From Mycoplasmatota bacterium (GTDB lineage Bacteria; Bacillota_I; Bacilli_A; MAG-NZ), in contig CP074575.1 of assembly GCA_018394315.1 (NCBI GenBank), positions 1,116,615 through 1,148,614 on the forward strand: DNA of 32,000 bases. The letters run 5' to 3'. The notes beneath the pieces were generated by a model that worked only from the letters and a program-made list of their open reading frames with translations, made no database searches and was not told the DNA's origin. This document shows, in pieces, positions 5,470 to 25,977 of the stretch. Every line of letters starts with the position of its first letter. The stretch's first letter is position 1. Position numbers and translations under genes: made by a program.

Positions 5470-5472
5470 CGA

Positions 5473-6840
5473 ATGCAAACTTCTAATGAAAGTTTTTTAT
5501 ATACAGTAATTGACGGCGCTTCAAATTTTAAAGAAAAGATTATATCTTACCGTAAGCAAATAGAGATTAGAAACAGTTGGCTAGAAGAGCGAATTAATAC
5601 GATATTACCTTCACTAATGTTGCGTGAAAATATAGATTGCTGGGTTGTTATGGCAAGGGAATATAATGAAGATCCAGTTATTATGAGTTTATTACCTGCA
5701 TCAATGTTATCTTGCAGAAGAACGACAATTCTATTATTTTCTTTACAAGATGATGGTACCTTAAAGCGTTATAGTCTCTCTCGACCTGGAACTGGTGTTG
5801 ATCATCTATATCAAGGAGTCTGGACAAATCCACTAGGTCAAGACTGGGGGAATCTAGATATAATGCCGTTTACTACTAAGCAAGAAGTAACGACAACTGA
5901 ACCAGAGACACAGTTTCAATGTCTTGCGAGAATTATAAAAGAGATCGATCCTAAAAGAATCGGATTAAATTTTTCAAGTGATTTTGCTTTTGGAGATGGA
6001 TTAACTAAAAGTTTATACGAAGAATTTTCTAATAATTTAGACTTTAATTTAAAATCGAGAATAGTAAGCGCAGAAAACATTTGTGTTGGATGGTTAGAGA
6101 CTAGAACCGATAATGAAATCTATGCCTATAATGGAATAGTTCAGATTGCGCATGGTATTATTTCTGAAGCGTTTTCGTCAAAAGTAATCTTACCAGGTGT
6201 TACAACTAATGCTGATGTTAAATTTTATATGATGCAAAAAGTAATTGACCTAGGTTTAGTTCCTTGGTTTGATTTTGAAGTTTCAATTATCAGAGAAGAA
6301 ATTGGAGCAATTGGAAAGGAAACTATAATCTTACCTGGTGATGTTTTACATTGTGATGTGGGATTAAAGTACTTAGGTTTATGTACTGATACGCAACATA
6401 ATGCATATGTACTTAAACTAGATGAAATCGAACCGCCAAAAGGTATACAACAACTACAACTAGATTTAAATAAACTTCAAGATATTACTCTTAGTAAATA
6501 TGTTGAAGGTTATTCGGGCAATCAAATCTTAAAAGATGCTCGCGAAGAAGCAATAAGAAAAGGGTTAAACCCATGTATTTACACTCATCCTATTGGTGTG
6601 CATGGGCACGGAGCAGGACCTACTATTGGACTTTGGGATATGCAAGATGGTGTTAAAGGTAGAGGGGATTATCCGCTTAATAACAATACACTTTATTCGT
6701 TGGAACTGAATATAACAACTACTATTCCAGAATGGAATAATCAAGAAATTACAATTGGGGCGGAGACAGACGTGTTGTTCAAAGATGGAAAAACATATTA
6801 CGTCGCTGGACAACAGACAAAAATGTATTTAATAAAATAG
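5473..6840 (+). CDS. M24-family metallopeptidase, long divergent subtype (group I, copy 1)
   Basis: 455 aa. Pita-bread pattern with a D-x10-D pair (HCDVGLKYLGLCTD), then YTHPIGVHGHGAGP, YSLELN and GAETDV. No signal peptide. AGAGG SD. Confidence 0.8.
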   Translation: MQTSNESFLYTVIDGASNFKEKIISYRKQIEIRNSWLEERINTILPSLMLRENIDCWVVMAREYNEDPVIMSLLPASMLSCRRTTILLFSLQDDGTLKRYSLSRPGTGVDHLYQGVWTNPLGQDWGNLDIMPFTTKQEVTTTEPETQFQCLARIIKEIDPKRIGLNFSSDFAFGDGLTKSLYEEFSNNLDFNLKSRIVSAENICVGWLETRTDNEIYAYNGIVQIAHGIISEAFSSKVILPGVTTNADVKFYMMQKVIDLGLVPWFDFEVSIIREEIGAIGKETIILPGDVLHCDVGLKYLGLCTDTQHNAYVLKLDEIEPPKGIQQLQLDLNKLQDITLSKYVEGYSGNQILKDAREEAIRKGLNPCIYTHPIGVHGHGAGPTIGLWDMQDGVKGRGDYPLNNNTLYSLELNITTTIPEWNNQEITIGAETDVLFKDGKTYYVAGQQTKMYLIK

Positions 6841-6850
6841 AGGTATAAAA

Positions 6851-8029
6851 ATGTCAATTCAAAGAGAAAAAGTAATCCAGGCAATTGAAATTGTAAAGGA
6901 AGAAAATATTGATATATGGTTAACAATTGGTAGAGAAACTGTCATGAACTCCGATCCAGTGATTCAATTGATTTCTAAAACTGATTTTGGTGGATTGACG
7001 GCAGCAATGATTTGCAAAAATGGAGATAATTTCATGCTTGCTAATCACCTAGATTCTGAAGGTTACCGAATGACTAATGTATTTGATAAGGTTATTCAAT
7101 ACGAGAACTTTGTGGAAAGTCTTTATAAAGTATTAGATGATATAAATCCAGAAGTAATAGCCGTTAATTATTCTAAAGATGTTGCTGCTGATGGCTTAAC
7201 GTATGGAATGTACATTCAGCTTTCTGAATGGCTTAATGAATATGGTTATAAGGGTAAGTTAATCTCTTCAGAAAGAATAATTGGGAAACTTCGCGGTTGT
7301 AAAACCAAAACCGAAATAGAATATATTAAAGAATCAACAAAGTATGCTGAGAAGATATTATTAGATTGTGTAGATTTCATAAGAGAAGGTGTTAGCGAAA
7401 AAGAAATATTAGATTTTTGCCATGAGAGAACTGAGTATTATGGACTAGAATTATCTTGGGAACCAGAACAATGCCCTGGCGTCATGGTAGGTCCTGATAC
7501 TGTCTTGGGGCATGCTGCACCAAGTGATACACTAAAAGTTAAAAAAGGTGATGTTGTCAATCTCGATTTTGGAGTAAAATATAAAAATTATTGTTCAGAT
7601 ATACAAAGAGTATTTTATGTTCCAAATGATGAGGATACGAATCTTCCTCATGAAATTATCACTACATTTGAAGGGGTACAGGAAGCGGTTCAAGCTGGAG
7701 TTTATAAGATGACAGTAGGTGAAACAATCTACATTCCGGATAAAACTGCTAGAAAATCATTAAGGAAAAATGGATTACCAGACTTTAAGTTTGGATTCGG
7801 TCATCAGGTAGGTTTGGCTACTCATGATGGTGGAATCTCTATGTCTCCAAGAAATAAAAATTATCAAGGGGCACAAGATAACTTCTTCTTAGAAAATATG
7901 GTATATACAGCTGATGTTGGGGTAAAAACTTCTCGAGGACACGTTAATCAAGAAGATATGATACTTATCACAAGTAATGGGCCGGTTTTCATTTCCAAAA
8001 AACAAAAATTACCTTATTGGTGTAAGTAA
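6851..8029 (+). CDS. M24-family peptidase, Xaa-Pro aminopeptidase-like (group II, copy 1)
   Basis: 392 aa with a creatinase-like N-terminal domain. Motifs: LDFGVKYKNYCSD (D-x10-D), GFGHQVGLATHDGG, YTADVG (Asp where the canonical motif is EP) and NQEDMILIT. Confidence 0.8.
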   Translation: MSIQREKVIQAIEIVKEENIDIWLTIGRETVMNSDPVIQLISKTDFGGLTAAMICKNGDNFMLANHLDSEGYRMTNVFDKVIQYENFVESLYKVLDDINPEVIAVNYSKDVAADGLTYGMYIQLSEWLNEYGYKGKLISSERIIGKLRGCKTKTEIEYIKESTKYAEKILLDCVDFIREGVSEKEILDFCHERTEYYGLELSWEPEQCPGVMVGPDTVLGHAAPSDTLKVKKGDVVNLDFGVKYKNYCSDIQRVFYVPNDEDTNLPHEIITTFEGVQEAVQAGVYKMTVGETIYIPDKTARKSLRKNGLPDFKFGFGHQVGLATHDGGISMSPRNKNYQGAQDNFFLENMVYTADVGVKTSRGHVNQEDMILITSNGPVFISKKQKLPYWCK

Positions 8030-8061
8030 ATTCTTACTAATATAGTAGAAAAAGGTGAAGA

Positions 8062-9384
8062 ATGACATATAAGAAAAAGATGAAAGAGCAATTTAGATTA
8101 TGTAATGATTGGTTAGTTAAGCGACTAGACACGGTAATTCCTTTAGTAATGGAGAGAACAGACAGTGATATGTGGATTGTTATTGGATCAGAAAATAATG
8201 AGGACCCAGTACTAAAGACAATGTTACCACAGGAGTTTTTTGGAGCGGTTGGAAAAAACATATTAGTTTTTTGTAAATTACCTGACGGAAAAGTTGATAG
8301 ACTAACTGTTTCTAGACCTTTAAGTGCAATTGATTATTACTACAAGCCTGTTTGGTATAAGCAAAAGGGTAAGGACTGGAAATCGTATTATGAATGGATG
8401 AACACACAAAACAGATTTATTAGTGTTAATTTAGATAACTATGAAGAGGAAACTGAGTGGGAATGCTTAAATCGTATTGTTAGAGAATATAAACCTAAGT
8501 CTATTGGACTGAATTATTCAAAGAGAACTAAATTTGCTGATGGTATTTCGCATTCAGAATATACTCAAATTAAGGAATGTCTAGATAATGAATACAAGGA
8601 TAAAATAACGTCTGCAGATTTGTTAGCTGTAGGTTGGTTAGAGACTAGAATTAAAGAGGAAATCGAGTATTATGAAGAATTGACTAACATAGCCCAATCC
8701 TTGATTAAAAGAGCATATTCAAGAGAAGTTATTGAAGTAGGAAAAACAACTAGTGGTGACGTAAGATGGTTCTTAATGCAAGAAGCCACTGATTTAGGAC
8801 TTAAACCGTGGTTTGAGGCTACAGTGTGGATTAATAGAGAAGGGGTTAAGGGATTAGACCATTCAGCAGTTATTGAGTATGGAGATTTACTACATTGTGA
8901 TTTTGGCGTTCAGTATATGGGTCTTTGTACCGATATTCAAGAAATGTGTTACATTCTAAAACCAAATGAAACTGATATTCCAAGTGGTATTTTAAAAGGA
9001 CAAGCTCAGGCAAATAGATTACAAGATATCCTAGCTGAGGAAATGACATGCGGATTGACGGGCAATGATGTTTTTGAAGCTACTATTAAAAGAGCAAAAT
9101 CCGAAGGGATGAAACCTTCTGTTTACACACATCCAATTGGATTTCATGGACATGGAGCAGGACCGTTAATTGGTCTATTCACGGCTCAAAAGCCTATTCC
9201 AAGAGGAGATAGAATACTTTATGCAAATACCATGTATTCTTTTGAACTAAATGTGACAGCTTCTATAGATGAATGGAACGGACAAGAAGTAATGTATGGT
9301 TTAGAAACAGATTGTTTGTTACGTGAAGATAACACAATTCACTATTTCGGTAAGAGACTAATGAAACCACATATAATAAAATGA
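8062..9384 (+). CDS. M24-family metallopeptidase, long divergent subtype (group I, copy 2)
   Basis: 440 aa, colinear with the 5473..6840 product. Shared motifs include MWIVIGSENNEDPV, GWLETR, LLHCDFGVQYMGLCTD, YTHPIGFHGHGAGP, YSFELN and GLETDC. Confidence 0.8.
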   Translation: MTYKKKMKEQFRLCNDWLVKRLDTVIPLVMERTDSDMWIVIGSENNEDPVLKTMLPQEFFGAVGKNILVFCKLPDGKVDRLTVSRPLSAIDYYYKPVWYKQKGKDWKSYYEWMNTQNRFISVNLDNYEEETEWECLNRIVREYKPKSIGLNYSKRTKFADGISHSEYTQIKECLDNEYKDKITSADLLAVGWLETRIKEEIEYYEELTNIAQSLIKRAYSREVIEVGKTTSGDVRWFLMQEATDLGLKPWFEATVWINREGVKGLDHSAVIEYGDLLHCDFGVQYMGLCTDIQEMCYILKPNETDIPSGILKGQAQANRLQDILAEEMTCGLTGNDVFEATIKRAKSEGMKPSVYTHPIGFHGHGAGPLIGLFTAQKPIPRGDRILYANTMYSFELNVTASIDEWNGQEVMYGLETDCLLREDNTIHYFGKRLMKPHIIK

Positions 9385-9523
9385 GTATTAAATATTCATA
9401 AAATATAATGTTCACTTGTTTGAATTTAAATGCACCTTAACGTGGGGACTTGTCGTCATAGGTTGGTATTCGATTTTAAAAGAGTGAACCTGTTTAATTT
9501 AAAATAGATTATAGGAGGTAAGT

Positions 9524-10708
9524 ATGGTATTACAAAGAGGAAAAGTTGTACAAGCCATGGATATAGTTAAAGAAGAGAACATAGATTTATGGATTACAAT
9601 TGGGAAAGAGACAGTAATGAATTCTGATCCAGTTATTCCGTTATTATCAACTACAGAATTTGGAAGCTTAACTGCTATCTTAATAACAAATAATTCTAGA
9701 AATATTGCACTGACTGGTCATCTAGATTTTGACGGTATGAAAGAAACAAAATGTTTTGATGAGGTAAGGATGTATGATAAAGGTTTCAAGGATGAGTTCC
9801 TTAAACTGTTGAACGAAATAAAACCTAAAGTAATTGCTTTAAATTTCTCTGAAGATGTGGCTAGTGATGGCTTATCTCATGGACTATATTTAAGACTGAC
9901 AAACTATTTCGAAGAATTTGGCTTTACTGGTCAAATAATTTCAAGTGAAAAAGTAATCGGTAAATTAAGAGGTAGAAAAACTAGTGAGGAACTCAAGAGA
10001 ATAAAGAAAGCAACCAAAGCTACCGAAATGATACTAAAAGAATGTGTTGGTTTTATAAGAGAGGGTGTTAGTGAATTAGATATTTTCAACTTTTGTCAAA
10101 GTAGAATTGAAGAACTAGGTTACGGTTATGCATGGGAGAAGAACCATAACCCTGGTGTTATGGTTGGTCATAAAGGAGCGTCTGGACATGTTGGACCTAG
10201 TTCAGAGGTTTTTGTGGAAAAGGGTGATTTAGTGACCTTAGACTTTGGTATTAAGGTTGATGAATATTCTTCTGATATTCAAAGAGTGTATTATATACCG
10301 AATGATGGTGAAACTAGTGTGCCTGAGGAGTTTACTAAGGGATTAAAGAATATGCATGAGGCGATAGATGCGGGAATAGCTAAGATGAGGCCAGGACTAA
10401 GTGCATATGTACCAGATAGTGAAGCAAGAAGGGTTCTGAAAGAAAAAGGGTTACCAGAATTTAATTTTGGTTTCGGTCATCAAGTAGGGCGAGAAGCTCA
10501 TGATGGTGGTGTTATGATGGGGCCTCTTTGGGAGAGATACTTAGGTATTGTTGAAGCTCCTTTAGAAGTTGGGATGGTTTTTACAGTTGACATAAACATT
10601 CCTTTTTCAAAGGGTAAGATTGGTCAAGAGGATATGGCGTATATAGGTGAATTTGAAACAGTATTACTTTCAAATCGTCAAAATGAAATATACTTTTGCA
10701 AAGATTAG
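9524..10708 (+). CDS. M24-family peptidase, Xaa-Pro aminopeptidase-like (group II, copy 2)
   Basis: 394 aa, colinear with the 6851..8029 product. Shared motifs include VKEENIDLWITIGKETVMNSDPVI, LDFGIKVDEYSSD, GFGHQVGREAHDGG, FTVDIN and GQEDMAYIG. Strong AGGAGG SD. Confidence 0.8.
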   Translation: MVLQRGKVVQAMDIVKEENIDLWITIGKETVMNSDPVIPLLSTTEFGSLTAILITNNSRNIALTGHLDFDGMKETKCFDEVRMYDKGFKDEFLKLLNEIKPKVIALNFSEDVASDGLSHGLYLRLTNYFEEFGFTGQIISSEKVIGKLRGRKTSEELKRIKKATKATEMILKECVGFIREGVSELDIFNFCQSRIEELGYGYAWEKNHNPGVMVGHKGASGHVGPSSEVFVEKGDLVTLDFGIKVDEYSSDIQRVYYIPNDGETSVPEEFTKGLKNMHEAIDAGIAKMRPGLSAYVPDSEARRVLKEKGLPEFNFGFGHQVGREAHDGGVMMGPLWERYLGIVEAPLEVGMVFTVDINIPFSKGKIGQEDMAYIGEFETVLLSNRQNEIYFCKD

Positions 10709-10718
10709 AGGATGAAAT

Positions 10719-11951
10719 ATGAATTTAAAAGATAAATTAGCAATATATGCAAAAATGATTGTTGAACAAGGTGTTGCATTAGAAAGGGGTCAAAAAGTAT
10801 TAATTAGAGCGTTTATAGATTCAATACAGTTAGTTAGATTAATTTCAAAAGAAGCATATAAGAATGGCGCAAGTAATGTTGTTGTAATATGGTCAGATGA
10901 TGAACTTGATAGAGATTTCGCATTCTTTTCTTCTGAGAATGATTTAGCTACCTATCCTAAATGGCAAAAAGAGATTTTCGATGATATCTTGGATTCTGGG
11001 GGTGTATCTATCAGTGTTAGGGCACCAAACTCTAGAATGTATGATGGAGTACCTAAAGATAGATTGTCTACTTTAACAAAAACTACTAGAACAGGATTTG
11101 CTAGTTTTTCTAGTGCAATTAGTTCCTCTGAAGTTAAATGGGTTGTAGTTAACGCTGTATCGAAGGCGTGGGCTACTCAAGTTTATCCAAGCTTGATAGT
11201 TGAGGATGCTTGCGAGAAACTATGGGATGATATTTTTTATTGTTGTAAACTAAATGAACCAAGTCCGCAAAAGGCACTTTCAAATCATGCTAGAAAGATT
11301 AATGAGACTGCTAAAAAAATAACTAAAAAACAATATAAAAAATTACTGTATGTTGGTCCCGGTACTGACTTAGAAGTGGTATTGCCAGAAAATCATCTTT
11401 TTGTAGGTGGTGGAAATATTGATGGAGATACTGTTCAAATGAGTAATATACCCACATATGAAATAGCATCTTTACCACATAAGTATGGTGTAAATGGTAG
11501 ATTATCCGCTACATTGCCACTTGTTTATAATGGAAATATTATTGAAAACTTCTGGTTTGAATTTAAAGATGGAAAAGTCATTGACTATGATGCAAAAGTA
11601 GGTAGAGACGCAATTGCAAGTATCTTAAGTATAGATGAAGGAGCAAGTTATCTAGGAGAGGTAGCGATTGTATCTCAAGATTCAGAAATAGCCTCTTTGA
11701 ATAAGCTGTTTTATAGTACATTATTAGATGAGAATGCAAGTTGCCATTTTGCATTAGGGTCAGCTTATCCTACATGTTTAGTTGGGGCAAAAGGGAAAAG
11801 TAAAGCTGAGCTAGAAAAACTTGGAGTTAACACTAGCATAACTCATGTGGATTTTATGGTAGGGTCATTTGAATTAGATATAATCGGTGTTTTTGAAGAT
11901 GGAAGCAAAGAGTTTATACTTAAAAACGGTGTGTTTTCAAATGAATTGTGA
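10719..11951 (+). CDS. M29-family aminopeptidase (AmpS/PepS/aminopeptidase T type)
   Basis: 410 aa. The N-terminus LAIYAKMIVEQGVALERGQKVLI and the C-terminal CHFALGSAYP ... THVDFM are characteristic of the thermophilic-metalloprotease M29 family. Confidence 0.85.
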   Translation: MNLKDKLAIYAKMIVEQGVALERGQKVLIRAFIDSIQLVRLISKEAYKNGASNVVVIWSDDELDRDFAFFSSENDLATYPKWQKEIFDDILDSGGVSISVRAPNSRMYDGVPKDRLSTLTKTTRTGFASFSSAISSSEVKWVVVNAVSKAWATQVYPSLIVEDACEKLWDDIFYCCKLNEPSPQKALSNHARKINETAKKITKKQYKKLLYVGPGTDLEVVLPENHLFVGGGNIDGDTVQMSNIPTYEIASLPHKYGVNGRLSATLPLVYNGNIIENFWFEFKDGKVIDYDAKVGRDAIASILSIDEGASYLGEVAIVSQDSEIASLNKLFYSTLLDENASCHFALGSAYPTCLVGAKGKSKAELEKLGVNTSITHVDFMVGSFELDIIGVFEDGSKEFILKNGVFSNEL

Positions 11952-11964
11952 AAGGGATGCGAAG

Positions 11965-13347
11965 ATGAATAGTAAGTTAAATATATATCATAATGAAATG
12001 GTTGAGGAGTTGCAGGCAGTAGTTCGAATTAAGAGTGTGGAAGATTATTCTACTGCGAGTAAGGGGAAACCATTTGGTGAAGGTCCTTATAATGTGTTAG
12101 ATTACGTTCTGAATCTATGTGAAAGATTAGGAATGAATACTACAAATATGGATGGATACGTAGGTTATGCAGAAGTTGGTGAAGGAGATGAAATGATCGC
12201 TTTACTGACTCATTTAGATGTTGTACCGGAAGGAGAATTAGATAATTGGGAGTTTCCTCCTTATTCAGCAACAATCAAAGATGGAATGATTTTTGGAAGG
12301 GGAGTTAGTGATAATAAATCACCTGCAATAGCGTCAATATATGCTTTGAAATCTCTAATGGACTCTAAAACTGAGTTTAATAAACGAGTCCGCTTAATAT
12401 TTGGAGCTAACGAAGAGAGTGGATTTGAATGTATGAAACACTATGTAAGACATGGTGAAATTCCTACAATTGGATTTACTCCAGATGCGATGTTTCCTAT
12501 AGTGCATGGGGAAAAGGGCATAACACAACTGTTATTTAAATATGATTTAAAACAATTAGAGCATGTTGAGTTAATAGACTTGGTAGGTGGGAATGCGCCT
12601 AATAACGTCCCTGACAAGTGCGTACTTACTGTTAAACCTAATAATGTTACCAAGTTAGTTGACGAGGTTAATCAGTTTTTAAAGGATAATGAATACTCTG
12701 GTAAAGTTACTGTAAGTGGAGATAAGGTTGTAGTTGTTATATATGGACAGTCTGCTCATGCTTCTACACCTGAAGAAGGAATTAATTCAATTGCTCAAAT
12801 GCTTCGTTTAATGGAAGAATGTGATATGAATTTTGAGTTCGTTAGAGCTTATAATAAAAAGATTGGTTTATGCTATGATGGATTTTTGATGAATTGTAAT
12901 TTTAAGGATGAGTATGGAATTCTTACTATGAATGTAGGATTAGTTGAAGTTGATTCTAATAGAATAAATTTTACTATTGATGTTAGATATCCTATCTCCT
13001 TAACAATTGAAGATATTTTTGAGCCTATGAAAGAATCTTTAAATGCAGTAGGTTTTGACATTGAAACTATAATAAATAAAGACCCGATTTTTTATGAACT
13101 AGACAATCCTATTATACAATCACTTGTTAGTGCTTATCGAGAGGTAACAAATGATAATGTTAATCAGCCTATGACAATGGGTGGCGGAACTTACGCAAGA
13201 GCCATGCCAAATCTTGTTGCTTTTGGTGGGATGTTTCCAAACGAACAATCCAATGCTCATCAGCCTAATGAATTTATTTCTATAAATAGATTTTTTGAAC
13301 AGACTGAAATTTATATCAAAGCAATTCAAAACTTATTGAATCTATAA
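11965..13347 (+). CDS. pepV: M20-family dipeptidase (PepV / Sapep-like)
   Basis: Motifs HLDVVPEG, GRGVSDNK, GANEESG and MTMGGGTYAR. I place the start at ATG 11965 (AAAGGGA SD 8 nt upstream, just after the M29 stop) rather than the ORF-track start at 11887, which overlaps the M29 gene. Confidence 0.85.
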   Translation: MNSKLNIYHNEMVEELQAVVRIKSVEDYSTASKGKPFGEGPYNVLDYVLNLCERLGMNTTNMDGYVGYAEVGEGDEMIALLTHLDVVPEGELDNWEFPPYSATIKDGMIFGRGVSDNKSPAIASIYALKSLMDSKTEFNKRVRLIFGANEESGFECMKHYVRHGEIPTIGFTPDAMFPIVHGEKGITQLLFKYDLKQLEHVELIDLVGGNAPNNVPDKCVLTVKPNNVTKLVDEVNQFLKDNEYSGKVTVSGDKVVVVIYGQSAHASTPEEGINSIAQMLRLMEECDMNFEFVRAYNKKIGLCYDGFLMNCNFKDEYGILTMNVGLVEVDSNRINFTIDVRYPISLTIEDIFEPMKESLNAVGFDIETIINKDPIFYELDNPIIQSLVSAYREVTNDNVNQPMTMGGGTYARAMPNLVAFGGMFPNEQSNAHQPNEFISINRFFEQTEIYIKAIQNLLNL

Positions 13348-13415
13348 AGAAATACTTTTAGTTACGGAAGCGATGTTAAAAAAGTATCATATTTTACAAA
13401 TATGTTAAAAAAATA

Positions 13416-13444
13416 TTGACTCTTACCTAGTCACGTGGTAATAT
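13416..13444 (+). promoter_or_regulatory. Sigma-A-type promoter for the aminotransferase gene
   Basis: TTGACT, a 17-nt spacer, then TAATAT, about 45 nt upstream of the AAGGAGA SD and ATG 13492. Confidence 0.5.
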
Positions 13445-13491
13445 GTTGAGACTATATATAATAAAAATTACATTCGAAAAGGAGAAGCAAA

Positions 13492-14685
13492 ATGGGAAAG
13501 AATTTATTTATTCATGAGAATGTTAATAAGGAAGCTTTAAAGAAAAAAGCTTTCAATTATCGATGGGCTGAAATTGAGGATGGTGTAATACCATTAACAG
13601 CTGCTGATCCGGATTTTCCAGTTGCTCCTGAGATTAAGAATGCCTTGATTAATTACATTAATGATGGTTATTTTTCATACAGCCCGCATACTGGACTTGA
13701 AGATTTTAAGGTAGCTATAGCTAATTCATTGAATAGTAGAAAGAATGAATTTGTTTCAAGTGAGCTAGTCTTACCAATTGATAGTGCAGCTCGAGGAATG
13801 TTCTTAATCGCAAACACTGTTTTAGAAGAAGGAGACGAAGTAATAGTATTTGATCCGGTAGATTATCTTTTTAGGGAGTCTACACTAAATGCTAAGGGTG
13901 TACCTGTACTGTTTCCTGCGAAGTTAGATAATAATGGTTATATTGATTTAAGTGAGTTGAAAAATTATATCACTAAGAAAACTAGAATGATATGCTTATG
14001 TAATCCACATAATCCATTAGGTGCAGTTTATTCTAAGGAAAACTTAGAATTAATTCTTGATTTAGCTAATGAACATGACCTATGGATAATGAATGACGAA
14101 ATATGGGCAGATATCGTTTATAGTGATAGTGAGTTTTTAAGTATTCTATCTTTAGGTGTTGAAAGAAATAAGAAAACGTTATCGGTTTTTGGATTTTCTA
14201 AAAGTTTCGGGATTGCTGGTTTAAGAGCTGGTTGTATTTATGCTCACGAACAAGAGATATTTAATAAAATTTTAGAAAACTCAAACATGATAACTACCGC
14301 TGGTGGAATCACTTCACTATCACAAATAGCTGGTATTGCTTGCCTAAATGAAAGTTATTACTGGGTTGAAGAGTTTATAAAACATCTAGAAAAGAATAGA
14401 GATTACGCTGTAGAGCGGTTAAATAAAATGAATAAAATTACATGTCATTTACCGAGTGCTACTTACTTAGTATTTCCAAATATTTCGGAAACTGGAATGA
14501 CTTCTGAAGTATTTGTAGAAAGGTTAAAAGAAGAAGCGAAATTAGCGGTTGTTCCTGGTACAGCTAAGTTTTTTGGTCCAGGTGCCGAAGGACACATAAG
14601 AATTTGTTATGCAACTTCCTTTGAAATTCTAAAAGAAGGTCTAGATAGAATGGAAGATTGGGTAAATAAGAATATCGATAAGTAA
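13492..14685 (+). CDS. PLP-dependent class I/II aminotransferase (possibly MalY/PatB-like C-S lyase)
   Basis: 397 aa. Motifs NPHNPLG and the PLP-lysine motif SKSFGIAGLRAG. The N-terminal W..I.DGVIPLTAADPDFP resembles C-S lyase-type members. Confidence 0.8.
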   Translation: MGKNLFIHENVNKEALKKKAFNYRWAEIEDGVIPLTAADPDFPVAPEIKNALINYINDGYFSYSPHTGLEDFKVAIANSLNSRKNEFVSSELVLPIDSAARGMFLIANTVLEEGDEVIVFDPVDYLFRESTLNAKGVPVLFPAKLDNNGYIDLSELKNYITKKTRMICLCNPHNPLGAVYSKENLELILDLANEHDLWIMNDEIWADIVYSDSEFLSILSLGVERNKKTLSVFGFSKSFGIAGLRAGCIYAHEQEIFNKILENSNMITTAGGITSLSQIAGIACLNESYYWVEEFIKHLEKNRDYAVERLNKMNKITCHLPSATYLVFPNISETGMTSEVFVERLKEEAKLAVVPGTAKFFGPGAEGHIRICYATSFEILKEGLDRMEDWVNKNIDK

Positions 14686-14798
14686 TCTTATAATGAATGG
14701 GATTATTATTAGTACTTAGTTTACTTTCATAGTATTTAGTTTTTAAGTACTGACGATAGAACTATGCTTTTCACCATAATTGATTAACTTAAAGGGAG

Positions 14799-15974
14799 AT
14801 GATTTCATTGGATCTAGAGAAAATTAAGCAACTAGAAACTCTACTTGAGAAGAGCAATGTAGATATGTATTTAGTTCTTTCAAGAGAGGACTCAGATATT
14901 ACAATGAGCCTATTTCTGGATGTTCATATAGTAGCACAAACAGCTATTATTTTTAGGCGTAATGGTAAGCATATAGTTCTAACTGGGGCTACTGATGCAA
15001 ATGCATATAGTAGCTTTGGCATCTTTGAAATCATTACAGTTGAAGATGACTTTTATCGCGAACTTGTTGAAATTATTGATAAGATTGAACCGAATAAAAT
15101 TGCTTTAAACATTTCCACTACTGATTATTTAGCCGATGGACTTACTATGGGGCAGTATCTGTGCTTAGAAAGTACATTAAGAAGTGATCGTCTTAAAGAA
15201 TTAGAAGTTTCAAGTGAAGATCTTTTAAACGAGATTAGATCGGTCAAGTCAGAGTATGAAATCAAATTGATCGAAAAAGCTGTGCAAATCACTTGTGATA
15301 TATATGATGAAGTACGTTCAGAAATTAGAGTAGGAATGAGTGAAACAGAGATTGGTGACTTGTTTGTAGCAGGATTAAAAAAATATGGCGTTATTAATGC
15401 GCTTGGTGGTAGCTACAACTATCCACTGGTTATGATTAATAGATGTGGTTTAGCTCATAGAGAACCTGTGAGTAGTTACGTGTTAGAAAAAGGAGATATA
15501 TTGATCTGTGACTTCAGTGTCATTTATGAAGGTTATTGCTCAGATATCGCAAGAAGCTTTTATGTTTTGAAGGATAATGAAAAAAGAGCTCCAAAGGATG
15601 TCCAAGATGCATTTGATACAACTGTTAAAGCTGTATCTAATATTATTAGTAACATGAAACCTGGATTAAAGGGGTATGAGATTGATAGTTTAGGGCGTAG
15701 TGTAATCGAAGCCGGAGGATATCCTACAATTAGACATTCAGCTGGACATCAACTAGGTAGGAAAGTTCATGATGGTGGAACACCACTATCTCCTTATAGC
15801 GAAAATAGACCAAGAACTATGAATAAAATAAGAGTCAATGAAGTTTATGCAATTGAACCAACAGTGATACAGGATAATGGACTTCCTAGTTTCATTGTTG
15901 AAGAAGATATTGTGGTAAGTAAAAATGGAGTAAGAGTCTTGAGTAGAAGACAAACAGAACTTTGGCTTATTTAA
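14799..15974 (+). CDS. M24B Xaa-Pro aminopeptidase/dipeptidase-like (group III, copy 1)
   Basis: 391 aa with canonical ligand pattern CDFSVIYEGYCSD, AGHQLGRKVHDGG, AIEPTV and EEDIVV. The start may instead be TTG 14808, which is 9 nt from GGGAG; ATG 14799 abuts the SD. Confidence 0.85.
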   Translation: MISLDLEKIKQLETLLEKSNVDMYLVLSREDSDITMSLFLDVHIVAQTAIIFRRNGKHIVLTGATDANAYSSFGIFEIITVEDDFYRELVEIIDKIEPNKIALNISTTDYLADGLTMGQYLCLESTLRSDRLKELEVSSEDLLNEIRSVKSEYEIKLIEKAVQITCDIYDEVRSEIRVGMSETEIGDLFVAGLKKYGVINALGGSYNYPLVMINRCGLAHREPVSSYVLEKGDILICDFSVIYEGYCSDIARSFYVLKDNEKRAPKDVQDAFDTTVKAVSNIISNMKPGLKGYEIDSLGRSVIEAGGYPTIRHSAGHQLGRKVHDGGTPLSPYSENRPRTMNKIRVNEVYAIEPTVIQDNGLPSFIVEEDIVVSKNGVRVLSRRQTELWLI

Positions 15975-16021
15975 AAGTAGGATATATTGGACAAGATTAA
16001 ATAAAGGGTTTGAAACCTCCC

Positions 16022-16080
16022 ATCTAGAACCTTAAGGGATACTAAAGGACTTATTTTAGTATCGTTTAGGGTGTCTAGAT
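16022..16080 (+). terminator. Long imperfect hairpin, probable terminator
   Basis: ATCTAGA..GATACTAAA / TTTAGTATC..TCTAGAT arms (about 25 pairs including wobbles and bulges) with loop GGACTTAT, followed by ATTATATTTGT. Confidence 0.4.
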
Positions 16081-16288
16081 ATTATATTTGTAAAAATTCT
16101 TAAATGTTGAGTAATGTAAATAAATATCTATATTTGAAATTGCTATAAAAGTGTCACTAATATGTGAAGAAATGATGGTACTCTTCTAGTAAAGTTGTAA
16201 AATTAGTTTTAAGCTAGTGAATGGGTTGTTGTTTATTACCTAAAGAAACGTATATTATGAAATAATTGAAAGAATGAGGGAATTATAG

Positions 16289-17461
16289 ATGGGTAAATAT
16301 TGTCTTCAAAAAGAAAAAATCGATCAAACAAAAAAATATCTTAAAGAGAATGATATAGATTGTTGGTTGATAAAAACTAAAGAGGGCAGTGACCCGTGTA
16401 TGTCTCTTATTTTTGGTTTTACAGTAGTAGGAGAAGCAATAATGATTATCACTCAGAGAAAGACGTATTCTATTGTAAGCATCATTGATGCACAAGACTC
16501 AGAGGAATGTGGACTTTTTGATGAGGTTATTAAGTATGGTAAAGAGGGAATAAAAGAACATTTAATTAATTTGCTATCACAGATAAAACCGAAGAAAATA
16601 GCCATTAACTATTCAAAGGATAGTCATCTGTCTGATGGATTAACGGTAGGTAGTTACCGTAATTTGATGGATATGGTTGGTAGTGAGAGTTATGAATTTA
16701 TATCTAGTGAAATGTTTCTTCAAAGATTAAGAAGTATTAAATCAAAACAAGAAATCGAATACATTCAAAAGGCAATTGATTTAACTTTAGAAATATATGA
16801 TGTAGTCTTTACCAAGATAAGAAAAGGAATGTCGGAAATAGAAATAGGAAACTTGTTTATCGAAGAGATGAAAAGGTTAGGAGTTGTTAATGGAATTAGT
16901 AGAAAATTAACACCTCCGATTGTTATGAAGTGTAATATTGCTCATCGACCTCCATCTAACGCAATTATTGAAGGTGGGGATTATCTAATATTTGACTTTT
17001 CTGTTGATTATAAAGGTTACTGTTCTGACATAGCTAGAACTTGCTATGTTTTAAAAGATGGTGAAGAAAAAGCAAGTGAAGAAATGGATAGAGCCTTTAA
17101 AGTCATATATGAAGCTGTTAATAAAGCTGTAGATTCATTAAGGCCTGGAACATTGGGATTTGAAGTCGATAGAGTCGCTAGACAATATGTCGTTGATATG
17201 GGTTATCCTAATATAATTCATGCAGTAGGTCACCAAATTGGACGAAACGTCCATGATGGTGGAACTCTACTTGCGCCTGATTTGAAGAGATATAAAAAGG
17301 GATCATATGGTATAATTGAAGAGGGAATGGTATTTGCGGTTGAACCTACTATATTATATACGGAAGGTCCAGCGATCATTTCAGAAGAGAATGTTTTAAT
17401 TACAAACAATGGAGCAATATTTTTGAGCAAGAGGCAAGAATCTTTAGTACTTATAAAGTAA
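16289..17461 (+). CDS. M24B Xaa-Pro aminopeptidase/dipeptidase-like (group III, copy 2)
   Basis: 390 aa. Motifs FDFSVDYKGYCSD, VGHQIGRNVHDGG, AVEPTI and EENVLIT. GAGGGA SD. Confidence 0.85.
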   Translation: MGKYCLQKEKIDQTKKYLKENDIDCWLIKTKEGSDPCMSLIFGFTVVGEAIMIITQRKTYSIVSIIDAQDSEECGLFDEVIKYGKEGIKEHLINLLSQIKPKKIAINYSKDSHLSDGLTVGSYRNLMDMVGSESYEFISSEMFLQRLRSIKSKQEIEYIQKAIDLTLEIYDVVFTKIRKGMSEIEIGNLFIEEMKRLGVVNGISRKLTPPIVMKCNIAHRPPSNAIIEGGDYLIFDFSVDYKGYCSDIARTCYVLKDGEEKASEEMDRAFKVIYEAVNKAVDSLRPGTLGFEVDRVARQYVVDMGYPNIIHAVGHQIGRNVHDGGTLLAPDLKRYKKGSYGIIEEGMVFAVEPTILYTEGPAIISEENVLITNNGAIFLSKRQESLVLIK

Positions 17462-17728
17462 ACAATAAGGGAAGTATAGAAATTATCTCTCACGATCTAA
17501 GCGTTGTAAAATAAATTATAGAACCTAAATTTTATATCTAGAAAATATTGCTGAGACAGTTCCGAGTATAAACTTTAGACCCGTTTCATCCATAAATTTA
17601 ATAGAAGGTGACAAATGAAATATAATTTTAAGGAACAAAGTTCAAGACCGGTAAATGAAGCTGAATGGTATTTTTTTACTATCCCATAGCTACTATTAGA
17701 AAGAAGCAAGAACAATAATTGTTAATCA

Positions 17729-17756
17729 TTGAAACGGTCATTGGTACCGTTATTAT
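17729..17756 (+). promoter_or_regulatory. Candidate sigma-A promoter with palindromic operator in the spacer
   Basis: TTGAAA (17729-17734), a 16-nt spacer, then TATTAT (17751-17756). The spacer is the inverted repeat AACGGT-N7-ACCGTT (17733-17751). It lies about 20 nt upstream of the GAGGAA SD and GTG 17778. Confidence 0.4.
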
Positions 17757-17777
17757 ATTAGAAACGAGGAAATAGTT

Positions 17778-18155
17778 GTGAAGAATTTAATCAATACCAG
17801 CAATGCCCCTGCGGCTGTTGGCCCATATACGCAGGCATTTGAGGCCCATGGAACACTTTTCGTGTCAGGGCAGATACCTTTCGTACCAGAAACAATGACT
17901 CTGGTAAGTGATGATATCTCAGATCAAGCAAGACAATCACTTGAAAATGTCAAAGCAATAGTAAATGAGGCTGGATATGAAATAACCGATATTGTGAAGT
18001 GTCAAGTTTTCTTAAATGATATGAATGATTTTCAAGCCGTTAATAATGTTTATGCTGATTTTTTTGGCGACCATAAACCAGCTAGATGCGCTGTTGAAGT
18101 CTCAAGACTTCCAAAAGATGTAGGGGTAGAGATTGACGCTATTTGCGTCAAATAG
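17778..18155 (+). CDS. ridA: RidA family (YjgF/YER057c/UK114) reactive enamine/imine deaminase
   Basis: 125 aa. Motifs APAAVGPYTQA, SGQIPF and ARCAVEVSRLPKDVGVEIDAI. GTG start with an SD. Confidence 0.9.
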   Translation: MKNLINTSNAPAAVGPYTQAFEAHGTLFVSGQIPFVPETMTLVSDDISDQARQSLENVKAIVNEAGYEITDIVKCQVFLNDMNDFQAVNNVYADFFGDHKPARCAVEVSRLPKDVGVEIDAICVK

Positions 18156-18158
18156 ATT

Positions 18159-18806
18159 ATGAATAGTGATTTAAAGAAGTATTTTCCGATAGCTGATTTT
18201 ATCGCTGCTATAAGTGGAAATAAAACCGAGGTATTAATTCATGATTTGAGTTGCCTCGATAAATCTATTATTTACATTGTAAACGGTGAAGTTACAAATA
18301 GAACTATTGGTGGTACAATTACAAAATTGGCAATGGAACTTATTCACGAAGGTCAAACTACCAACCAACCTAGTACTGTAAATTACTTAGGGACAACTAA
18401 TAAGGGAAAGAATATATTACGTTCTTCAACATATTTTATTAGAGATGAAAATGGAGTTGCGATAGGTCTTTTGTGTGTAAATACTGATATTACTACTCTA
18501 CTGAAAATGAGAAAGGCTGTTGATGATCTGTTAATAGTTGACGACAAAATAAGTAAGAATAGCGATGTACCAACAATAATTGAAAGATTTGATGGCACGG
18601 TCGACGAAATAATTAAAGAGACTATCAATAGTGTGATTTTCGAATACGGTAAAGGTGAGACATCTTCAGAGAAGTTTAAACTAGTAGAAATGCTAGAAAA
18701 AAAAGGTGTTTTCAAGTTTAAAGGCTCTGTTGATATTGTAGCTGTGGCTCTTGAGGTTTCAATCCAGAGCGTTTACAGATACATAAAGTCAATTAAGGGA
18801 AGGTAA
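18159..18806 (+). CDS. YheO/DauR-like transcriptional regulator (PAS-like sensor plus C-terminal HTH)
   Basis: 215 aa, colinear with the E. coli YheO pattern: EVLIHDL..., IGLLCVNTDI, EKKGVFKFKGSVDIVAVALEVSIQSVYRYIK. Confidence 0.75.
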   Translation: MNSDLKKYFPIADFIAAISGNKTEVLIHDLSCLDKSIIYIVNGEVTNRTIGGTITKLAMELIHEGQTTNQPSTVNYLGTTNKGKNILRSSTYFIRDENGVAIGLLCVNTDITTLLKMRKAVDDLLIVDDKISKNSDVPTIIERFDGTVDEIIKETINSVIFEYGKGETSSEKFKLVEMLEKKGVFKFKGSVDIVAVALEVSIQSVYRYIKSIKGR

Positions 18807-18811
18807 GTTAT

Positions 18812-20026
18812 ATGATTAAGCATAAAATGATTGAACGTTATTCTAAACTTAAAGGTGGGTTATTTGATAAAGTTACTAAAGCAGATGTAGGTGATGGAGT
18901 TATGAAACTCTTGGAAGATGGAGTAGATATCTTAGCGTGGGCTGATCCATTTTTCCCTGATCCTTCAATCCCTAAATCTGTCCAAAAAGTTATGATAGAT
19001 GCGATTAAAGATGGATTCCCATCTCACTACTCAATGCCTATTGGTATGGTGGAACTAAGAGAAGCGATTGCTAGTAAGGTGAGCAAACAAACTGGTCTAG
19101 AAATAAATCCCAGTAGGAACGTAATTGTTACTCCAGGATCTGATACTGCATTATTGTATTCTATGATGCCTTTTATAGGTGAAGGTGACGAAGTTTTGGT
19201 ACCTGATCCAAGCTATCCAAGTAATTTTTTGAATCCAGAATTGTTAGGTGGAGTTACTGTTCGAGTACCACTATACGAAGAGGATAACTATGCCTTTAGA
19301 ATTGAAGAATTCGAAAAGAGAGTTACAGACAAAACAAAGCTAGTATTAATCACGCATCCGAACAACCCAACTACTACTGTCTTTAGACGTGAAAACATTA
19401 TAGAGTTATGTGATTTTGTTAAAAAACATGATTTAGTTTTGGTATCAGACCAAGCATTTGAGGATCATATATTTGACGGAATTGAATTTGTACATCCCGC
19501 TACAATTGATGGTATGTGGGAGAGAACTCTAACGGTATGCTCTATATCTAAAGGAATTGGGTTGAGTGGATTTAGAATAGGTTATATTTATGCAACAGAT
19601 GAAATTATGGATGTTCTTTATGGTGGAGCAGTTAATGTACTTGGTGCAGCAACCACAATCACTTCTTTGGGTGCAGTTACAGCTATTGAGGATACAAAAT
19701 ATCTAGAAATTGTATTTAAGAAATTTGACCGTAGACGAAAAATGGTTTATGAACTATTTAGTGGAATGGACAATGTGAGTATGAAGATGTCTGAAAGTGG
19801 ATTCTTAACATGGTTAGATATTTCAAAATTAGGAACAAGTGATGAGATCACTGCATACTTACTTAAGGAAGCAAATGTATTAGTAAATTCTGGGGCAGCT
19901 TACGGAAAGCAAGGAGAAGGTCATATCAGAATTGTTACAGGTTGTTTCGAAAGTGATGATAAAGCTAATAAAGTATTTACAAAAATAAAGAATGCGTTGA
20001 TAAACTTTAACAAAAAAAACCTTTAA
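18812..20026 (+). CDS. PLP-dependent class I/II aminotransferase
   Basis: 404 aa. Motifs HPNNPT and the PLP-lysine motif SISKGIGLSGFRIGY, plus GEGHIRI near the C-terminus. Confidence 0.85.
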   Translation: MIKHKMIERYSKLKGGLFDKVTKADVGDGVMKLLEDGVDILAWADPFFPDPSIPKSVQKVMIDAIKDGFPSHYSMPIGMVELREAIASKVSKQTGLEINPSRNVIVTPGSDTALLYSMMPFIGEGDEVLVPDPSYPSNFLNPELLGGVTVRVPLYEEDNYAFRIEEFEKRVTDKTKLVLITHPNNPTTTVFRRENIIELCDFVKKHDLVLVSDQAFEDHIFDGIEFVHPATIDGMWERTLTVCSISKGIGLSGFRIGYIYATDEIMDVLYGGAVNVLGAATTITSLGAVTAIEDTKYLEIVFKKFDRRRKMVYELFSGMDNVSMKMSESGFLTWLDISKLGTSDEITAYLLKEANVLVNSGAAYGKQGEGHIRIVTGCFESDDKANKVFTKIKNALINFNKKNL

Positions 20027-20038
20027 AAAGGTTTTTTT
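20013..20038. terminator. Bidirectional A/U-rich hairpin shared by convergent genes
   Basis: AAAAAAACCTT / AAGGTTTTTTT, 11-bp stem with only 2 G-C pairs. It contains the stop codons of both convergent genes, with A and T runs on either side. Confidence 0.4.
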
Positions 20039-21362
20039 AATATATAATATGTAATTTTTGTTGTCTACCACCAAGAAACTCGACTTTATTATTTATGAAT
20101 ACAACTTCTATTTCTTGACCATACATTATTATTTGATTATTCCAAGAGGGAACTTCCTCGCGAATATTTAATTCCATAGCGTATAGAGTATTATCGAATA
20201 ATTTATATTCACCCATTCCCTTAACAAATTTTTGATTTGTGAATGAACCAATAGTTGGACCAGGTCCATGTCCAAACAAGCCAATCGGGTGTGTATAAAT
20301 CATTGGTCTTTTGATACCTTTTCCTTTTGCAACAGTTAATGCATTTTGTAATATCTCATTTCCAGTCATACCAAGTTTAAAACTATCTGCTAATATGTTC
20401 TGTAAATCCATTGCTATATTATGTATGCCTTCAAGTTCCTTAATTAGCTGTTCATCGTTTTCACCCTTAACATATGCCATTTCTTGAACATCAGAACATA
20501 ATCCAGCATATTCAAATCCAAAATCACAGTGAAGCAAATCACCTTTTTTTATTACTTCTGAATCAGAATCAAGATGAGGGTGACCATTTCGTCTTATCCA
20601 AACAGTAGCGCTAAACCAGGGAATTCCATAAAGTTCCATTGCCCTTTCCATTAAGAAAAAACGAGCTTGACCTAATGTGGTTTTACCTGGGGTAATAACT
20701 TTGCGTGAATAACATTCTAAGATTATTTCTCGTGTTAATTTAACGATTGATTTAACAACATCAAGCTCAAGCTCAGTTCTAGTTTCAAGCCACCTTAAAG
20801 CCATATTTTCTCCAGAACTAATCTTATCATGATGTATATTGTCAATACAGTCTAGTAAGAAATCATAATTCGTTTTGCTTAATCCATCTGAGAACGGTGT
20901 AAGTGTGGAGACGTCAATAGAGATTTTTTCTGGATTTATTTCGTTCACAATTCTCTTAATACATGCTTTCTCGTCCTCAACTGGAAGACTTCTAATCATA
21001 TCTAAATCATAACCTGATTGAAATGTGTTATAAAACATTTCAAAATCAAATAAAGGCGGTTTTAGAAGTATGGGAGTATAAAAATTAGCGATTGTGAAAT
21101 CGGGCTTTGAGACTATGTATCGTTTTAACTCATTGTCTTGATAAACAAAGATAAAAATAGCTTTTCTTCTTGCATGAAAAAAACTACTAGGTAACAATGA
21201 GCGAATAGTAGGACCTTCGTTATATTCGTCTCCAATAACTATCCACATGTCTGTATCTGTTTCTTTCATTAGTTCTGGTAAAAGTTCTTCAAGTCTATGT
21301 TTTAATAATTTATCTCTTAATTCAAATTGGTCTTGTAAATTTATCACGTGTTTTTTATTCAT
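20037..21362 (-). CDS. M24-family metallopeptidase, long divergent subtype (group I, copy 3)
   Basis: 441 aa, colinear with the 5473 and 8062 products. Shared motifs include MWIVIGDEYNEGP, RWLETR, LLHCDFGFEYAGLCSD, YTHPIGLFGHGPGP, YAMELN and GQEIEV. GAGGGAG SD on the minus strand. Confidence 0.8.
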   Translation of the reverse strand: MNKKHVINLQDQFELRDKLLKHRLEELLPELMKETDTDMWIVIGDEYNEGPTIRSLLPSSFFHARRKAIFIFVYQDNELKRYIVSKPDFTIANFYTPILLKPPLFDFEMFYNTFQSGYDLDMIRSLPVEDEKACIKRIVNEINPEKISIDVSTLTPFSDGLSKTNYDFLLDCIDNIHHDKISSGENMALRWLETRTELELDVVKSIVKLTREIILECYSRKVITPGKTTLGQARFFLMERAMELYGIPWFSATVWIRRNGHPHLDSDSEVIKKGDLLHCDFGFEYAGLCSDVQEMAYVKGENDEQLIKELEGIHNIAMDLQNILADSFKLGMTGNEILQNALTVAKGKGIKRPMIYTHPIGLFGHGPGPTIGSFTNQKFVKGMGEYKLFDNTLYAMELNIREEVPSWNNQIIMYGQEIEVVFINNKVEFLGGRQQKLHIIY

Positions 21363-23672: not shown

Positions 23673-23684
23673 GGAGGTGAAAGA

Positions 23685-25216: not shown

Positions 25217-25220
25217 TTAA

Positions 25221-25955: not shown

Positions 25956-25977
25956 AACGAGGGCAACCTCGTTTTTC
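25954..25977 (+). terminator. Intra-operon rho-independent hairpin (partial terminator/attenuator)
   Basis: AAAACGAGG / CCTCGTTTT stem with GCAA tetraloop and a U-run, starting in the SIS stop codon, 38 nt before nagA. Confidence 0.6.

Follow-up and report, generated by a model that had tools for sequence, protein, structure and literature searches.

A putative composite peptide-catabolism island with seven M24 paralogues in a Mycoplasmatota genome

Gene content of the M24 locus

The subject of this analysis is a set of seven genes for paralogous proteins of the M24 (pita-bread) peptidase fold, which lie between positions 5473 and 21362 of a 32,000-nucleotide stretch of the genome of a deep-sea Mycoplasmatota bacterium (GenBank assembly GCA_018394315.1, contig CP074575.1, positions 1,116,615 to 1,148,614 of the forward strand). 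This whole stretch is called the window here; its GC content is about 33%, and nearly every gene is on the plus strand. Pfam and NCBIfam scans give the gene order substrate-binding protein (SBP), OppB, OppC, OppD, OppF, M24 Ia, M24 IIa, M24 Ib, M24 IIb, M29, M20, aminotransferase AT1, M24 IIIa, M24 IIIb, RidA, a YheO-like regulator, aminotransferase AT2, and M24 Ic. The order is identical in the 98%-identical relative Mycoplasmatota bacterium zrk1 (CP134194) over the stretch fetched from it (L001), which covers the first five M24 genes, breaks off after the beginning of IIIb, and does not reach Ic. An earlier note, made from the letters of the window alone, had listed the seven M24 open reading frames, and all are intact, with the coordinates and lengths given there.

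Directly upstream of the array lies one Opp-type ATP-binding cassette (ABC) transporter; that note had placed one transporter beside the array. Its first gene encodes a family-5 substrate-binding lipoprotein (1 to 1556, plus strand; PF00496, E=1.4e-59), the 5' end of which is about 120 nt outside the window; the full-length orthologue from zrk1 has the lipoprotein-type N terminus MKKLFMLLLTLAVTLTLASC. It is followed on the same strand by the permease genes oppB (1637 to 2548) and oppC (2555 to 3478) and the ATPase genes oppD (3490 to 4503) and oppF (4504 to 5469), with BPD_transp_1, OppC_N, and ABC_tran plus oligo_HPY domains. The system thus has the parts of an Opp/Dpp-type importer, namely a family-5 SBP, two BPD_transp_1 permeases, one of them with OppC_N, and two oligo_HPY ATPases. 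The SBP itself scores below the OppA equivalog cutoff (157 versus 947 bits) and reaches no other equivalog cutoff.

The importer is followed on the plus strand by M24 Ia (5473 to 6840; 455 amino acids), a conserved member of its clade, M24 IIa (6851 to 8029; 392 amino acids; PF00557, 103 bits), a divergent Group II copy, the lineage-restricted M24 Ib (8062 to 9384; 440 amino acids; 39 bits), and M24 IIb (9524 to 10708; 394 amino acids; 107 bits), a conserved member of the core Group II clade. Two exopeptidase genes of other families come next, one for an M29 aminopeptidase (10719 to 11951; PF02073, E=1e-129) and one for an M20 dipeptidase of the PepV/Sapep type (11965 to 13347; NF005591 PepV, 464 bits against a cutoff of 435; TIGR01887, 445 bits). 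The M20 start at 11965 (460 amino acids) follows the gene call in zrk1; the longest open reading frame begins with the GTG at 11887, which puts its first 65 nt inside the M29 gene, and the start at 11965 removes this overlap.

The second half of the island opens with the class I/II aminotransferase AT1 (13492 to 14685; PF00155), which is also the first gene of what is called cassette B below, followed by M24 IIIa (14799 to 15974; 391 amino acids; PF00557, 124 bits) and M24 IIIb (16289 to 17461; 390 amino acids; 139 bits). A decayed fragment of an OppF-like ABC ATPase (17473 to 17567) separates IIIb from the RidA enamine/imine deaminase (17778 to 18155; TIGR00004, 170 bits against a cutoff of 106), a YheO-like transcription regulator with Pfam matches to PAS_6 and HTH_22 (18159 to 18806), and the class I/II aminotransferase AT2 (18812 to 20026; PF00155), all on the plus strand. 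M24 Ic (20037 to 21362; 441 amino acids; PF00557, 61 bits) is on the minus strand and convergent with AT2.

Family membership and metal sites of the M24 proteins

Pairwise BLAST bears out a division of the seven proteins into three subtypes, which the earlier note had drawn from shared motifs. Identity is 38 to 40% within Group I (Ia, Ib, and Ic), 49% within Group II (IIa and IIb), and 40% within Group III (IIIa and IIIb), compared with 29 to 33% between Groups II and III and 21 to 28% between Group I and the rest. The motifs were all recovered with regular expressions once the dots in that note were taken as variable spacers: six residues, not three, separate HCD.G from C(T/S)D, and three separate GFGHQVG from HDGG. 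Likewise, the D-x10-D pair is kept in all seven, and none has a signal peptide, as had been claimed. As a proxy for the latter we used the maximum Kyte-Doolittle mean over 15 residues within the first 50, and with observed values of at most 1.27, an N-terminal hydrophobic segment is absent from all seven; the M24 enzymes are therefore predicted to be cytoplasmic.

The PF00557 gathering score (23 bits) is exceeded by six of the seven paralogues (39 to 139 bits). Ia alone has no Pfam match even at E<=10, and its 98%-identical orthologue has only a weak precomputed match to PF00557. Its assignment to M24 rests on three lines of evidence. It is 38 to 40% identical to Ib and Ic; a profile of the Ia family matches the M24B structures 3q6d (E=4e-6) and 2zsg; and an AlphaFold2 model of good overall confidence (pLDDT 87.6, pTM 0.84) retrieves 2zsg, 3q6d, 1kp0, and others in Foldseek with a probability of 1.00 and target-normalised TM scores up to 0.70. 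The best matches of this model are two-domain M24B enzymes, creatinase, and DddP, and Spt16 is also among the matches. Group I is indeed the most divergent of the three, as had been suspected: it has no PDB match by single sequence, Ia lacks the Pfam match, and Ia is only 11 to 18% identical to its best structural matches in the Foldseek alignments. Relative to the small M24B enzymes, Group I carries about 60 extra residues, and the Ia model is poor at around residues 129 to 139 and 172 to 174.

Membership of known subfamilies was judged by the curated cutoffs of NCBIfam equivalog models (profile hidden Markov models), and none of the seven proteins reaches any of them. The best score against PepP (NF008131) is 48 bits, for IIIb, against a cutoff of 465, with no match for Group I; bacterial PepQ (NF010133) gives at best 38 bits against 339, archaeal PepQ (NF040821) 105 against 630, and YpdF (NF007310) 102, again for IIIb, against 393, with 24 bits for Ic. 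Among the creatinase, ectoine hydrolase, and dimethylsulfoniopropionate lyase models, TIGR02993 gives 24 bits against 613, DoeA (NF038259) 35 against 575, and DddP (NF043017) 36 against 600. The methionine aminopeptidase (MetAP) model of the M24A branch (TIGR00500) gives at best 89 bits, for IIIa, against 171; MetAP is a single-domain protein, and all seven paralogues have an extra N-terminal domain of about 150 to 220 residues. As all of these scores are far below cutoff, the seven fall outside any single well-characterised subfamily, which is in keeping with the interpretation in the earlier note.

The closest known relatives are the small two-domain M24B Xaa-Pro peptidases, such as Thermotoga maritima aminopeptidase P (2ZSG), Bacillus anthracis prolidase (3Q6D), the Pyrococcus prolidases (1PV9 and 1WY2), Escherichia coli YpdF (5CNX), and Lactococcus PepQ (4ZNG), to which Groups II and III are most similar in sequence and Ia in fold. 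Groups II and III align with 2zsg, 3q6d, and 1pv9 over their full length (E 1e-22 to 1e-31), the alignment to 2zsg starting at about residue 11 to 16, and the Ia model aligns with two-domain structures over 413 to 466 columns; the Pfam model of the N-terminal domain, PF01321, went undetected in all seven. The paralogues appear to have the architecture of these enzymes, with a creatinase/prolidase-like N-terminal domain and a pita-bread C-terminal domain; they share with them the predicted cytoplasmic location and the five ligand positions, and differ from them in missing the curated cutoffs 4- to 10-fold and in the low identity of Ia.

All five metal-ligand positions are occupied in each of the seven proteins, by D, D, H, E, and E in Groups I and III and by D, D, H, D, and E in Group II. 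In Ia these are D295, D306, H372, E411, and E431, which are invariant across 25 Group I sequences (alignment A2), and the Group I ligands are present in 68 to 80 of 83 diverse representatives. With a complete metal site in all seven, catalysis is plausible throughout, and Group III is the most canonical of the three groups.

Two cassettes, a transporter relic, and the age of the M24 lineages

The earlier note described the array as a dense radiation of one fold beside one transporter. The density is far above background. Group I genes were used to seed 32 loci from other species, each 18 kb or longer; a single M24 gene is present in 24 of them, two in four, three in three, and five in one, so that in this comparison the window is the only locus with seven. 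The description is nevertheless misleading, as the array is not the product of one local burst; it consists mainly of two old cassettes placed side by side, one of which has lost its transporter.

The first of these, cassette A, combines an Opp-type importer with M24-I and M24-II genes, with or without M29 and M20, and is found in Oscillospiraceae, Erysipelotrichales, and gut and fermenter metagenomes. Loci seeded on Group II, in Angelakisella and several human-gut and fermenter contigs, have the order SBP5, M24-I, OppBCDF, M24-II, in some cases EamA and M42, and a third M24, with Opp components 53 to 64% identical to those of the window. Variants include one in Erysipelotrichaceae (Opp, SBP, M24-II, M24-I, S9, M20, gmk, M29, M24-Ia) and one in Anaerorhabdus (M24-II, an AT1 62% identical to that of the window, M29, M24, OppBCDF, SBP, M24), and the M29 gene recurs in related loci. 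In the Anaerorhabdus locus, a yhfZ-yhfT-DUF2620-amidase-PTE-yhfS-yhfX-yhfW-like set of obscure function lies directly upstream of the M24/Opp cluster (L082, 1370 to 9817).

Cassette B, identified from loci seeded on IIIb, has the order AT1, SBP5, M20, IIIa, M20, IIIb, OppBCDF, RidA, YheO, AT2, and convergent Ic, and is intact on three unrelated contigs (L111, L114, and L115). By BLAST, the L111 proteins are 69% (AT1), 57% (IIIa), 65% (IIIb), 69% (RidA), 51% (YheO), 66% (AT2), and 61% (Ic) identical to their counterparts in the window, compared with only 35 to 48% for the cassette B transporter of L111 and the window transporter. The convergent terminal M24 gene at the Ic position is also present in L114 and L115. 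A Brevibacillus variant reads M20, IIIa, M20, IIIb, OppBC, SBP, M24, OppDF, and a flavoenzyme (DAO). In this locus (L112) RidA, YheO, and AT2 are replaced by a sarcosine-oxidase/D-amino-acid-dehydrogenase-like flavoenzyme (15981 to 17173) together with DUF3830. The flavoenzyme may mean that the product is an imino or N-alkyl amino acid; NCBIfam scans of it and of the cassette B M20 enzymes gave only sub-cutoff matches and no clue to substrate.

The earlier note had allowed that the array might turn out to be a common and already described operon architecture. As the cassettes recur in other bacteria, clusters of several M24 genes with an Opp importer are a recurrent architecture, although no publication describing them was found in the literature searched.

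In the window, cassette B is without its SBP, both M20 genes, and OppBCDF. What is left of the transporter is a relic in the 316-bp gap between IIIb and RidA, at the exact position of OppF in the intact cassettes. It encodes the OppF-like H-loop SIEIISHDLSVVK (ISHDLSVVK) up to a stop codon and, after a frameshift, INYRT*ILYLENIAETVPS with a further stop (*), and it is recovered by blastx as two collinear segments against residues 214 to 242 of the L111 OppF, with a summed score of 37.7 bits that exceeds all of 1000 dinucleotide shuffles (maximum 33.5). We therefore read the sequence at 17473 to 17567 as the deletion scar of the transporter that cassette B has lost. A search of the gaps between AT1 and IIIa and between IIIa and IIIb for relics of the missing M20 and SBP genes gave only non-collinear or wrong-strand scraps. 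Just 3' of IIIa, in the 314-bp gap where intact cassettes hold an M20 gene, there is a long imperfect hairpin at 16022 to 16080, with a stem of about 25 bp (minimum free energy of -33.5 kcal/mol for 126 nt, z = -2.95), which may act as a terminator or a regulatory element or be what is left of a deletion.

Orthologues outside the window indicate how old the individual M24 lineages are. Group I has more than 7500 homologues in a clustered protein collection, scores at E<=1e-30 with about 174 clusters of 50% identity, and occurs in 598 genome stretches from Erysipelotrichaceae, Oscillospiraceae, Chloroflexota, Trueperaceae, Bathyarchaeota, and others; the orthologues of Ia are 52 to 72% identical to it. 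For IIIb, orthologues number in the hundreds in Spirochaetota and Bacillales (62 to 66% in proteins named for Sphaerochaetaceae or Spirochaetota, 50 to 54% in Bacillales). IIIa has orthologues at 57% (L111) and 48% (Brevibacillus), and those of IIb are 57 to 60% identical, with core Group II being rare at a few dozen proteins. All homologues in these clades are generically annotated. Thus, for Ia, IIb, IIIa, IIIb, and Ic there are orthologues elsewhere at 57 to 72% identity, compared with 38 to 49% between the paralogues of the window, from which it follows that these five lineages are old and have been maintained independently.

Only Ib, and perhaps IIa, look lineage restricted. Among 1.84 billion representatives, Ib has no full-length relative above 48% identity besides its copy in zrk1, and only a few short fragments at 49 to 54%; IIa has a single closer relative (P0122, 74%). 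The possibility that Ic and IIIa are likewise lineage-specific divergent copies was ruled out by their orthologues at conserved positions in L111, L114, and L115. A metagenome scan with Ic alone had returned nothing, and an orthologue of it surfaced only via cassette B. Comparison with zrk1 gives dN/dS values of 0.08 to 0.20 for Ia, IIa, Ib, IIb, and IIIa, calculated from just 4 to 8 nonsynonymous changes per gene, which indicates purifying selection on these five.

The gene order alternates both in cassette A of the window (Ia-IIa-Ib-IIb, 5473 to 10708) and in the intact cassette B of L111 (M20-IIIa-M20-IIIb, 4287 to 9179), which suggests duplicated two-gene units and possibly a paired function. 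For cassette A, the order suggests that a pair of Group I and Group II genes was duplicated, with Ia and IIb as the conservative daughters and IIa and Ib as the diverged ones.

Beyond Ic, positions 21744 to 29849 hold genes for a PRD/Mga/EIIA-type regulator, a phosphotransferase system EIIC component of the EIIC-GAT family, a SIS-domain protein, NagA, NagB, and PtsI. This content suggests an amino-sugar utilisation operon that is apparently unrelated to the peptidase island. A 219-amino-acid open reading frame on the minus strand (30460 to 31119) has no NCBIfam match and only a sub-threshold Pfam match to Mpv17/PMP22, and is probably a small membrane protein.

A candidate peptide-utilisation pathway and its alternatives

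When these results are taken together, we consider it fairly probable that the region is a composite cytoplasmic island for peptide catabolism, in which specificities are divided among the M24 enzymes and the products feed transamination. In such a pathway, oligopeptides would be taken up by the lipoprotein-anchored Opp-type importer and digested to free amino acids by nine intracellular metallo-exopeptidases, namely the seven two-domain M24B-type proteins, the M29 enzyme, and the PepV-type M20 enzyme. The amino acids could then be converted to 2-oxo acids by the two aminotransferases, with reactive enamine or imine by-products cleared by RidA, and the YheO-like regulator would probably control at least the RidA-YheO-AT2 unit. 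As to its origin, the island would have arisen when cassette A was joined to cassette B, which would then have lost its own importer and two M20 genes, while within cassette A the I-II pair was apparently duplicated to give Ia-IIa-Ib-IIb.

The seven M24 proteins would, on this account, be non-redundant. Ia, IIb, IIIa, IIIb, and Ic would stand for at least five orthologous lineages of old date and Ib and IIa for two younger divergent copies, and the enzymes would probably share out the work according to peptide length and to the residues on either side of the scissile bond. The earlier note had proposed partitioned specificities, and the high identity of orthologues relative to paralogues, along with the low dN/dS values in the five genes compared with zrk1, makes this plausible. 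Xaa-Pro-type bonds, which general aminopeptidases are unable to cleave, are the likeliest shared theme. A bias toward proline is hinted at by the nearest characterised relatives, which are Xaa-Pro peptidases, by the S9 prolyl-oligopeptidase-family and S33-like hydrolases that adjoin M24 genes in related loci, and by a secreted-looking protein of 798 amino acids (P0387) in which a Group-I-like M24 domain is fused to cyclophilin and FKBP prolyl isomerases. Another secreted-looking protein (P0317, 995 amino acids) has a Group-I-like M24 domain fused to a metallo-beta-lactamase-fold domain and an HExxH region.

Several observations weigh against this interpretation, and some of them concern the active sites. 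In Groups II and III a His lies about 18 residues before the first Asp ligand (GH..P or AH..P), a residue also present in PepP (His243) and MetAP (His79), and this His is missing from Group I. Group I has instead a His two residues before that ligand (LHCD; H293 in Ia), in 25 of 25 aligned family members and 65 of 83 diverse representatives; this H-x-D His probably points into the active site, as it would lie on the same face of the beta-strand as the Asp. Core Group II, a clade of about 15 sequences that includes both copies in the window, carries Asp where Glu would be expected as the fourth ligand (TADVG in IIa, TVDIN in IIb) and Phe in place of the His that Xaa-Pro peptidases have four residues before the ligand His (FGFGHQVG), whereas its sister clades keep both Glu and His (alignments A3 and A4). 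Because of the missing canonical His in Group I, and of the Asp ligand and Phe in Group II, a classical Xaa-Pro specificity is uncertain for these two groups. Core Group II also has a conserved C-terminal Cys (IYFCK or YWCK). The PROSITE Xaa-Pro signature, in the form [HA]-[GSYR]-[LIVMT]-[SG]-H-x-[LIV]-G-[LIVM]-x-[IV]-H-[DE], was matched by none of the seven in a regular-expression search, Group III coming nearest (HSAGHQLGRKVHD and HAVGHQIGRNVHD).

Points of another kind should be set beside these. Databases and a literature search yielded no characterised member of any of the three M24 clades, and family-5 binding proteins also carry non-peptide ligands such as nickel, opines, and glutathione. 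The dN/dS values come from few substitutions, as noted above. Finally, no promoter, terminator, riboswitch, or CodY signal backs any particular operon structure: an Rfam search at gathering thresholds gave no matches, a scan for promoters and terminators showed no enrichment over shuffles, and a search for CodY boxes found 10 sites against 8.3 expected, which is not an enrichment.

The features that set Groups I and II apart could also be accounted for if some or all of the M24 paralogues, these two groups especially, were not ordinary peptidases but amidohydrolases or lyases for modified or non-proteinogenic compounds supplied by a dedicated family-5 importer. N-alkyl or N-acyl amino acids, opine-like conjugates, D- or beta/gamma-linked peptides, and compatible-solute derivatives would be candidate substrates, and the aminotransferases and RidA would go on to deaminate the products. 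We give this explanation a modest chance of being right. Creatinase, ectoine hydrolase, and DddP share the M24 fold and appear among the structural matches of Ia, the relocated His of Group I and the Asp and Phe substitutions of core Group II would fit this explanation, and the tight co-occurrence of M24-I and M24-II with one transporter lineage suggests a dedicated substrate. The SBPs of this family have matches to NikA, CntA, and GsiB, which is in keeping with non-peptide ligands; cassette B has RidA, two aminotransferases, and a YheO-type regulator among its conserved genes, and the Brevibacillus variant adds its flavoenzyme. Yet the models for DoeA, DddP, and related enzymes score far below their cutoffs, and the full dinuclear metal site is kept, unlike in creatinase, which lacks the metal ligands retained here. 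Moreover, the neighbouring genes encode typical peptide-degrading exopeptidases, namely M29 and a PepV that passes its cutoff, joined in related loci by M42 and S9, and where M24 domains occur in fusions they are linked to prolyl isomerases and other peptidase-like domains. A more specific proposal, which we think rather unlikely, is that Group I and core Group II each form a new functional subfamily of the pita-bread fold and act together, with a dedicated importer, on unusual peptides or amino-acid conjugates beyond the reach of ordinary peptidases (rich in Pro or Hyp, N-alkylated, or D- or iso-linked), that cassette B is a second such pathway, and that two undescribed pathways have merged onto one importer.

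Alternatively, the paralogues could be largely redundant Xaa-Pro peptidases that serve dosage, or that accumulated neutrally, in a peptide-fermenting organism. The seven do share one fold family and one locus, and Ib and IIa, with no or few orthologues, look as recent and possibly dispensable copies would be expected to. This explanation nevertheless seems doubtful to us, as the paralogues are 21 to 49% identical when orthologues from distant phyla at the same cassette positions are 57 to 72% identical, which points to long-term independent maintenance; the active-site neighbourhoods also differ systematically among the groups, and the divergent copies are under purifying selection as well. 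It is very improbable that one or more copies are catalytically dead and have a regulatory or scaffolding role like that of Ebp1 or Spt16, for example as hetero-oligomers within the I-II or IIIa-IIIb pairs. The alternating gene order (Ia-IIa-Ib-IIb, and M20-IIIa-M20-IIIb in intact cassettes) could suggest such a paired function, as could the non-canonical Asp ligand of Group II and the presence of Spt16 among the fold matches of Ia, but metal-binding residues occupy all five ligand positions in all seven proteins, the Group II Asp is conserved across the core clade and not degenerate, and dN/dS is low.

A peptide-catabolism island of the kind preferred here has counterparts among known systems. 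Peptide-transporter operons with a peptidase gene include dppA-E of Bacillus subtilis, which encodes a D-aminopeptidase and Dpp, and opp-pepO of Lactococcus lactis. They share with the island an ABC importer dependent on a family-5 SBP that is encoded together with cytoplasmic peptidase activity for the imported peptides. They differ in having a single peptidase of another family (M55 and M13, respectively), whereas here there are nine exopeptidases, seven of them M24, along with aminotransferases, RidA, a regulator, and an assembly from two cassettes. Creatinase, DoeA/EutD, and DddP have the same overall two-domain fold, with Ia structural matches at E 1e-12 to 1e-16, but their context is solute catabolism and not a battery of peptidases.

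The locus is, in this comparison, an unusually rich and conceptually ordinary peptide-utilisation island, and no new type of mechanism is implied. A literature search found no paper on these M24 clades, on the cassettes, or on the peptidase content of the strain, and the two recurrent multi-M24 cassettes are apparently previously undescribed.

M24 enzymes are usually annotated "Xaa-Pro aminopeptidase" by default. The locus shows that M24B includes at least five uncharacterised lineages of long standing, each of which goes with particular peptide-type ABC importers in Bacillota, Spirochaetota, Chloroflexota, and others, and none of the Group I homologues, from about 600 species genomes, has a known substrate. 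The named strain zrk1, presumably a cultured isolate, carries the array over the stretch fetched from it and offers a compact system in which all of these lineages could be compared side by side. Knowing the substrates of its M24 enzymes would improve the annotation of many peptidases from gut, rumen, and sediment, and would clarify how fermenters with reduced genomes exploit peptides.

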